Assembly (NCBI GenBank): GCA_944385935.1
Contig: CALWZC010000004.1
Span: 75,426 to 139,425, forward strand
DNA: 64,000 nt
Origin: an uncultured Anaerofilum sp.
GTDB taxonomy: Bacteria; Bacillota; Clostridia; Oscillospirales; Ruminococcaceae
Reading direction: 5' to 3'
The position numbers were made by a program, and so were the translations under genes. A model generated the notes under the pieces. That model did not search any database and was not told the DNA's origin. It worked only from the letters and a program-made list of their open reading frames with translations. Of this stretch, positions 27,316-28,014 are shown in pieces (the first letter of the stretch is position 1; each line of letters opens with the position of its first letter).

Positions 27316-28014
27316 TTGAAACAGAAAATCAGCTTTGTTCCTTTGGATGCAGACTTGCAACTTTGGCTATTGGAAAAATTGTTAAAGGAGCCACCCCAAA
27401 GCCCCTACACAGCAGAGTTTTTGCAAGGGGTTCGCAATCTAATTTGTGGACAAACGAGCTCGCTACTTCTAGGAAGTCCTGAACAAAAGGGAGTAGTGGA
27501 ACAGGGATTGTCCGAAAGCATTGTAGTGGGAGAGTTGGAAATATCCCCTAAAAATAGAAAGGTCATCCTACAAGGGAAAGAGATAAGCCTCACCCCAAAA
27601 GAATTTGATATTTTGTATTTTTTGGTGGAAAATAGGGGAGGAGTGTTATTCAACGACTTGCCTGCCCATTTTAGTGGAGCAGAGTTGGCAGCGGTACAAG
27701 CAAAATATATCGGGCTATTTCAAGCCGGCTGGTTTGTAGAATCCATGTGGAGCCAAACATTGGTGATTCACATGATTCGTACCCCAAAATTGCCTTTCTT
27801 GCAAAGCCGAGCTTCTGCACCTGTCACACTGCTTACCATGGCGGGAATTGTGGTGCTTACTATCATTCCTTTCACTGGTTTTGGTGCTATGCTAGGATTT
27901 ACTTCTTTGCCCATTGTTTATTTTGCTTATCTCATTCCTTGCATTGTGCTGTATATGGCTTTGGCAACCAGCTTGAAAAAAGCCTACGTTCGCCACTATG
28001 GAGAATTGCTATAA
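27316..28014 (+). pseudogene. Chimeric remnant ORF joining a truncated OmpR-type winged-helix fragment to a diverged second copy of the MgtA C-terminus (last 2 TM)
   Basis: Residues about 69-110 (VVGELEISPKNRKVILQGKEISLTPKEFDILYFLVENRGGV) are the first two-thirds of a Trans_reg_C domain. Residues about 128-232 ([39 protein letters not shown]...YVRHYGELL) are collinear with the last ~105 aa of the upstream MgtA. TTG start 9 nt after GGGGG. Confidence 0.6.

Follow-up and report, generated by a model that had tools for sequence, protein, structure and literature searches.

Among the closest described counterparts of the locus analysed here are mgtA and mgtCBR of Salmonella, which are under PhoP control and are accompanied by MgtR, MgtS and MgtU (PMC13209247, PMC3641672), short hydrophobic peptides that bind MgtA or MgtB and alter their FtsH-dependent stability (PMC13209247). 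Our locus lies in a 64,000-nt stretch of an uncultured Anaerofilum sp. (contig CALWZC010000004.1; hereafter the window), in which a chimeric 232-codon open reading frame (ORF) at 27316-28014 follows an intact gene for an MgtA-type Mg2+ pump, mgtA1. We conclude with high confidence that this ORF is the remnant of a deletion between short direct repeats (microhomology) that united the front of a winged helix-turn-helix (wHTH) regulator gene with the tail of a second pump gene, mgtA2; it is an ordinary gene remnant and not a new kind of protein. By analogy, the undeleted cassette resembles the Salmonella system in that MgtA-type pumps occur together with a DNA-binding protein of the OmpR family and that a pump gene is directly followed by the gene of a short hydrophobic peptide; the position of the 51-aa peptide gene (sp51) after mgtA2 mirrors that of mgtR after mgtB, and in many other species mgtC precedes mgtA2. 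Unlike the PhoP system, the cassette has two tandem pumps, and its regulator is without a receiver and has no cognate kinase nearby. In the literature, neither the cassette nor similar fusions were found described, and only enterobacterial mgtA/mgtCBR work was returned.

Deletions between short direct repeats, arising by slippage or short-homology recombination, are classically known from the lacI deletion hotspots of Escherichia coli. The present case is alike in that the breakpoints fall in an imperfect 12-nt repeat (13-nt for a second deletion described below) of which one hybrid copy is left, and in that the same repeat pair was possibly used more than once; it differs in that the repeats are 2.9 kb apart and in that the event is known as a natural polymorphism of metagenomes. 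As in other chimeric pseudogenes and fusion ORFs, two unrelated genes were cut and joined with loss of essential domains, and intact orthologues persist in sister strains. Unlike those, the fusion here is the majority allele of its species, has kept its frame and probably shares a transcript with a pump gene that in some strains is still intact. The ORF and its parts are the following, in window coordinates.

27316..28014, + strand: chimeric 232-codon ORF with a TTG start; the exact protein (P0121) is on 6 public contigs.
27300..27306, + strand: Shine-Dalgarno-like AAGGGGG, 9 nt ahead of the TTG; the same start is called in the intact loci.
27316..27635, + strand: 5' part, contributed by the wHTH gene (N-terminal domain that matches no family, linker, beta-sheet and helix alpha1).
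27636..27647, + strand: junction, an imperfect 12-nt direct repeat (window sequence GGGAGGAGTGTT) within both blastn blocks, placed by three-way alignment.
27648..28014, + strand: 3' part, from mgtA2 (last ~122 mgtA2 codons and the stop; transmembrane (TM) helices M8-M10).

The origin of the ORF was read from a comparison with conspecific metagenome contigs, which share 97.6-99.4% nucleotide identity with the window; the protein search behind the matches to the fusion and its parents covered 5.8 billion proteins. In the intact locus L001, which is syntenic with the window on both flanks, the gene order is DUF2871, NERD, guaA, mgtA1 (885 aa), wHTH (167 aa), a 290-nt spacer, mgtA2 (919 aa), the 51-aa gene, GntR and ABC genes. 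Alignment with blastn gave a left block (window 20001-27647 to L001 2686-10332, 98.7%) and a right block (window 27636-34000 to L001 13176-19541, 99.2%), which overlap by 12 nt in the window and skip 2,855 bp of L001. The overlap is a direct repeat in L001, with a left copy in the regulator gene (GGGAGAAGTGTT, in codons 107-111) and a right copy in mgtA2 (GGGAGGAGTGCT, ~124 codons from the gene end), and the window holds the hybrid of the two, GGGAGGAGTGTT, by which wHTH codon 108 is joined in frame to the last ~124 mgtA2 codons. L001, L089 and L090 are intact, and L001 is collinear with the window on both sides of this one gap. The mgtA1 gene is untouched by the deletion and is syntenic with the 885-aa gene of the intact loci L001 and L089, and the L001 copy of mgtA2 exceeds the cut-offs of full-length pump models (PRK15122, 1172 bits; TIGR01524, 1129 bits).

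At the protein level, fusion residues 1-108 equal those of the intact 167-aa regulator (P0033) except for the polymorphic S54I and S68N, and are identical to those of the intact allele P0128. P0033 holds a complete effector domain of the OmpR/PhoB type (Trans_reg_C, PF00486; profile positions 1-77 of 77, 97.5 bits; closest VanR, YycF and MtrA), of which the beta-sheet and helix alpha1 are retained in the fusion. There, Pfam matched residues 87-111 to positions 1-25 of the 77-position profile, with 21.4 bits where the cut-off is 26.2; helix alpha2, the recognition helix (alpha3) and the wing at the C-terminal end are missing. OmpR-type effector domains in the PDB matched residues 59-114 (E 3e-7 to 4e-3). 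The fusion is therefore not a complete PF00486 wHTH, which has a recognition helix and wing and scores above the gathering cut-off. An earlier sequence-only reading of the window had recognized the ORF as a chimera of a truncated OmpR-type winged helix and an MgtA-like C-terminus, which the ORF call, BLASTP, Pfam and the PDB matches bear out at a level well above chance, and had rightly placed the cut before the recognition helix and wing. Its suggestion that residues 30-68 might be the tail of a receiver fails on the intact gene: neither Pfam nor NCBIfam gave a receiver domain (PF00072) match in the fusion or in the intact 167-aa regulator, residues 1-57 of P0033 match no family, and NCBIfam response-regulator models align from residue ~58, at their own positions ~120-230. 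Even the intact regulator is thus without the receiver that defines response regulators.

The pump half begins at fusion residue 109/110. BLASTP aligned residues 126-232 without a gap to residues 779-885 of the upstream MgtA1 (50% identity, E 5e-36), Pfam placed Cation_ATPase_C at residues 126-221 (28.9 bits against a cut-off of 27.3; profile positions 83-173 of 175), and a PDB sequence search matched the MgtA chains to residues 126-232 with E ~1e-37; the alignment runs over the whole of the C-terminal ~107 residues of the MgtA structures (9zlk, 9byb, 9ejn, 8uy7). Identity of the 3' part to the mgtA2 tails of other species is 75-90%. Hydropathy delineated an amphipathic helix at 131-156 (M8) and strongly hydrophobic helices at 168-186 (M9) and 198-216 (M10). 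The collinearity with MgtA noted earlier from sequence therefore holds, but not its start at residue 128 or its count of two TM helices, since M8 is present too; the gap between the mgtA1 stop and the ORF is likewise 16 nt, and not 17. In contrast to the MgtA structures, only ~13% of the pump is kept, without the catalytic (phosphorylation and nucleotide-binding) and actuator domains and without M1-M7, so that the fusion is not a full Mg2+-translocating P-type ATPase (TIGR01524 / PRK15122), which has all domains and ten TM helices. From its domain content, the product is predicted to be unable to bind DNA or to pump Mg2+, and we infer that it is most likely a functionless by-product.

The deletion joined the two imperfect 12-nt repeat copies, and such a junction points to replication slippage or short-homology recombination. 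Lost with it were alpha2, alpha3 and the wing of the regulator, the 290-nt spacer and the first ~795 mgtA2 codons, which specify the cytoplasmic domains and M1-M7. Because the deleted length is 2 mod 3 and the offset between the two genes is 2 mod 3, the fusion is in frame; by this chance the 232-codon ORF has stayed open behind the regulator's own ribosome-binding site (RBS), the AAGGGGG motif inherited from the wHTH gene, in an operon with mgtA1 and the 51-aa gene. The proposal that a deletion had collapsed a regulator gene onto an mgtA thus stands on the 2,855-bp gap relative to L001, whereas the regulator was not a response regulator, being a 167-aa protein with an effector domain only.

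Several observations weigh against so plain an account. None of the 20 contigs with the 2,855-bp junction has an interrupted ORF (17 copies are complete, three cut by contig ends) and, as had been noted from sequence, the ORF keeps its RBS; since the frame is open and both RBS and operon position are kept, a protein may be made. Taken as a whole, polymorphism in the fusion tails amounts to 6 nonsynonymous and ~21 synonymous differences, which can be read as constraint. Finally, the junction exists in three versions that differ at the two mismatch positions of the repeat, and a single simple event does not explain them.

The conspecific contigs fall into three allele classes. The intact class comprises L001, L002 and L089-L093. 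The 2,855-bp deletion, the commonest allele of the species, is found in the window, L003, L084-L088, L094-L097 and L100-L106, of which L097 was the only further contig obtained from a junction scan of the metagenome contig collection. The fusion cluster (P0001/P0121) has eight protein variants that are at least 98% identical, in addition to the read-through products P0134 and P0142. A third class, in L098, L099 and three similar places, has lost 1,535 bp in an independent deletion whose junction lies in a 13-nt microhomology, CATTG[T/C]AGTGGGA, with loss of the regulator 3' end and the mgtA2 5' end. In this allele (L098 2873-4889, L099), a frameshift leaves 59 aa of the regulator, what remains of mgtA2 is broken into 218 and 388 aa, and mgtA1 is broken into 134 and 716 aa. 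The mgtA1 gene is disrupted, by independent lesions, only in strains that already have one of the two deletions, in 5 of 8 deletion haplotypes versus 0 of the 4 intact ones that show the gene (hypergeometric P ~0.07); the lesions are 1-nt deletions at gene positions 401, 759, 1830 and 2633 and a 273-nt loss (L084, L103-L106, L098/L099 and L100-L102); the deletion at position 401 was found in both deletion classes. The lesion at position 2633, present in L100-L102 from different samples, is a slip from A8 to A7 at window 27274-27281, by which the frame of mgtA1 continues through the regulator fragment into the MgtA2 tail, giving a read-through product of 1123 aa (P0142). Because a second independent deletion and several mgtA1 frameshifts occur in the same species, the cassette is decaying piece by piece in this uncultivated gut Bacillota species.

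The junction versions are A..T (L085, L086, L095, L096), G..T (the window and most contigs) and G..C (L100-L102). On the right flank, the G..C alleles agree with intact alleles at ORF nt 331, 396, 414 and 423 (T, T and G at 396, 414 and 423); the other fusion alleles have C, C and A at 396, 414 and 423, states that none of the four sampled intact alleles shows. Homologous exchange does not readily account for the three versions, because the difference closest to the junction lies only 5 nt away and leaves no anchor. As a separate observation, two of the A..T contigs, L095 and L096, switch from ~nt 1620, ~7 nt before the ORF stop, to another small-peptide homologue and GC-rich DNA, which resembles Pseudoflavonifractor-type loci (L072, L074); the switch may reflect recombination with a further cassette or genome, or transfer into one.

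These patterns make it conceivable, though we hold it only tentatively, that loss was adaptive and recurrent: inactivation of the wHTH-mgtA2 pair would have been advantageous, and the same repeat deletion would have arisen more than once and risen in frequency, with the ORF still a by-product. The three junction versions favour such a history, as do the match of the G..C right flank to intact alleles where the others differ, the nearest difference being 5 nt off, the 1,535-bp deletion that strikes the same two genes, and the excess of deletion over intact alleles. Against this, a point mutation with a conversion tract, or an unsampled parental haplotype, could yield three versions; the tail was sampled in four intact alleles only, and metagenome contigs may mix strains. 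Recurrent loss would in any case refine, and not replace, the explanation of the ORF as a deletion remnant. A stronger form, in which the wHTH-mgtA2 interval is a positively selected deletion hotspot, the 12-nt pair recombined at least twice and the other pair once, and the 232-aa product is tolerated or used on MgtA1 or the 51-aa peptide, appears improbable to us; if it were true, each deletion would silence a regulator and a second pump together.

That the fusion is instead a functional protein retained by selection, with the regulator's N-terminal domain tethered by M8-M10 as a new small membrane protein that, for example, modulates MgtA1 or the 51-aa peptide, is unlikely. In its favour are the open frame in every allele, the intact RBS and operon context, the status of majority allele and a raw tail polymorphism that is mainly synonymous. 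Openness was nevertheless rejected as evidence of selection: at the frameshift density of mgtA1, ~1 disruption is expected in 699 nt and none would be seen with P ~0.35, so that ORF integrity is uninformative either way. The use of whole-ORF dN/dS as a decisive test of function was rejected as well, because the synonymous differences are clustered in seemingly imported tracts (ORF nt 343/475/477/484; 522-564 in L094; 675-698 in L095/L096), which we interpret as imported from functional mgtA2 alleles, or as older in them than the deletion. Low-frequency variants private to the fusion tails comprise ~6 nonsynonymous to 4 synonymous, a ratio ~10 times likelier under an omega of 0.3-1 than under 0.1, although the numbers are small and confounded by recombination; omega is ~0.10 for the intact mgtA2 alleles. 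Three fusion-allele replacements (A137V, G138S, Y202C) fall at positions invariant in the mgtA2 of 67 species, and a fourth (R226H) where 64 of the 67 have R; none of them occurs in intact conspecific alleles. The evidence on selection leans only tentatively towards relaxed constraint, within the limits of small numbers and of recombination. The architecture is moreover confined to one species (0 of 80 other-species loci), and in many fusion strains its would-be partner, mgtA1, itself carries a frameshift. The ten-TM topology of MgtA and the hydropathy of the tail also suggest that M8, which enters the membrane from the outer face in MgtA, would fit poorly with a cytoplasmic N-terminal domain.

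To place the cassette among other species, the regulator was used as a query with one genome per species, giving 80 loci (L004-L083). Nearly all of those that reach far enough show the order mgtA1, regulator, spacer (120 nt to 6.7 kb), mgtA2 and small peptide. The regulator is complete in 80 of 80 (164-169 aa in 77 of the 79 extracted), with matches spanning 165-167 of 167 residues, one of them beginning at residue 4; mgtA1 lies upstream of it in 79 of the 79 loci that reach that far, and a full or contig-cut mgtA2 lies downstream in 73 of the 80. The hosts include Lachnospiraceae, Oscillospiraceae, Clostridioides difficile, Erysipelotrichaceae, Negativicutes and Olsenella, and thus several Bacillota classes as well as Olsenella, and the flanking genes vary by genome. 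Amino acid identity to this species' copy is 75-88% for mgtA2 (one partial match, 64%), 53-68% for mgtA1 and 57-71% for the regulator; the much better conservation of mgtA2 than of mgtA1 suggests horizontal spread or unusually strong constraint. The 232-aa fusion architecture was absent from the 80 other-species loci, and the full query was covered only by the cluster P0001/P0121. The sequence-only reading had named a conserved 232-aa family in relatives as its refutation; only near-identical conspecific contigs had the architecture, so that the reading is not refuted on this count. The intact regulator with mgtA for which it had suggested looking is present at this position in conspecific intact loci, and other species hold it within the cassette.

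The same reading had proposed that one regulator and one mgtA collapsed and that the intact mgtA now upstream displaced the older one and was possibly acquired, an account that we regard as very improbable. It is right that the two MgtA sequences are old paralogues. Their tails share 52% nucleotide identity and 32% at third positions (mgtA1 versus fusion), with a longest identical run of 13 nt (GAATCCATGTGGA, at 27024 and 27739, as had been quoted), so that nucleotide divergence with short identical runs, and the absence of a recent tandem duplication, were correctly seen. The fusion tail is the end of an old, conserved paralogue, mgtA2 (50% amino acid identity to MgtA1, saturated third positions), and no diverged copy of the gene upstream; mgtA2 stands intact downstream in sister strains. 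Intact conspecific strains hold both pumps in the same order, the mgtA1-wHTH-mgtA2 order recurs in nearly all of the 80 species loci, and because mgtA1 belongs to this conserved cassette the upstream gene is ancestral and not a replacement; the displacing-copy scenario is thereby refuted. An assembly artefact, a chimeric contig collapsed at the short repeat common to both breakpoints, was rejected as scarcely credible, since 12 nt is far below assembler k-mer sizes and at least 20 independently assembled contigs, which come from many samples and from assemblies that differ in how contigs are named, have the same junction.

The fusion itself has little import for biology at large, but it is a well-resolved case of a short-repeat deletion yielding a plausible chimeric ORF, of the sort that annotation pipelines will call a protein and whose origin strain-level metagenome data are able to settle. 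Its context brings to light a very widely shared cassette in which two MgtA-type pumps are accompanied by an OmpR-like regulator without a receiver and by a membrane peptide of 51 aa, and the deletion alleles are natural knock-outs for the study of the regulator or the pumps.

Truncated relatives of mgtA2 were also observed in other lineages. MgtA2-like proteins with in-frame internal deletions include P0047, P0054, P0058, P0064, P0066, P0068, P0069, P0072 and P0093. In P0054 (402 aa) and P0064 (392 aa), a segment ending in GANSI is joined to the C-terminal helices, and seven further matches (six of 402 aa, one of 392) have the same Pfam domain set; the junction of P0047 (272 aa), …AEAL|LYNDLAAHFSG, lies within two codons of the window's junction. 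Truncated MgtA2-like lengths of 136, 154, 174, 244 and 388 aa recur in many clusters, and together these sequences suggest that mgtA2 is often disrupted in other lineages too. The spacer between regulator and mgtA2 holds, in many species, mgtC (225 aa), a membrane ORF of ~77-86 aa, a 103-aa DUF3784 protein and sometimes a CDF transporter (mgtC-type spacers in L005-L008, L014, L016, L017, L023-L025, L027, L035, L036, L054, L055, L073, L078 and others); that of Blautia producta (L007) also has a CDF cation-efflux gene, and the window's species has the 290-nt spacer only.

The remaining features of the operon in the window are listed below.

24642..27299, + strand: mgtA1, intact 885-aa Mg2+-translocating P-type ATPase (Pfam P-type ATPase domains; TIGR01524, 892 bits against a cut-off of 610.75).
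27274..27281, + strand: A8 homopolymer, five codons before the mgtA1 stop (A7 in L100-L102).
28029..28184, + strand: sp51, gene of the 51-aa single-TM peptide, kept 14 nt downstream of the fusion ORF; it follows mgtA2 in nearly all species.
28186..28242, + strand: strong hairpin and U-run at the operon end, resembling an intrinsic terminator (fold dG -26.4 kcal/mol, z -6.4).

The sequence of the sp51 peptide is conserved between species (consensus MNWKEIWMTLFGTTEWLG...GFW...MNVVFWSMKP). Neither this peptide nor the additional parts of the fusion had a Pfam or NCBIfam match above threshold, and MgtR, MgtS and MgtU were not compared with the peptide directly. Rfam at gathering thresholds returned no family in the whole window or in L001, and thus no M-box or other known Mg2+ leader before either pump gene. 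Beyond the terminator, a promoter-like site of the next gene (GntR) lies at 28248-28276. Two genes upstream of mgtA1, before guaA, window 22106-22846 encodes a 246-aa protein with a NERD (nuclease-related) domain fused to a topoisomerase-type C4 zinc ribbon, which is conserved in all conspecific contigs.

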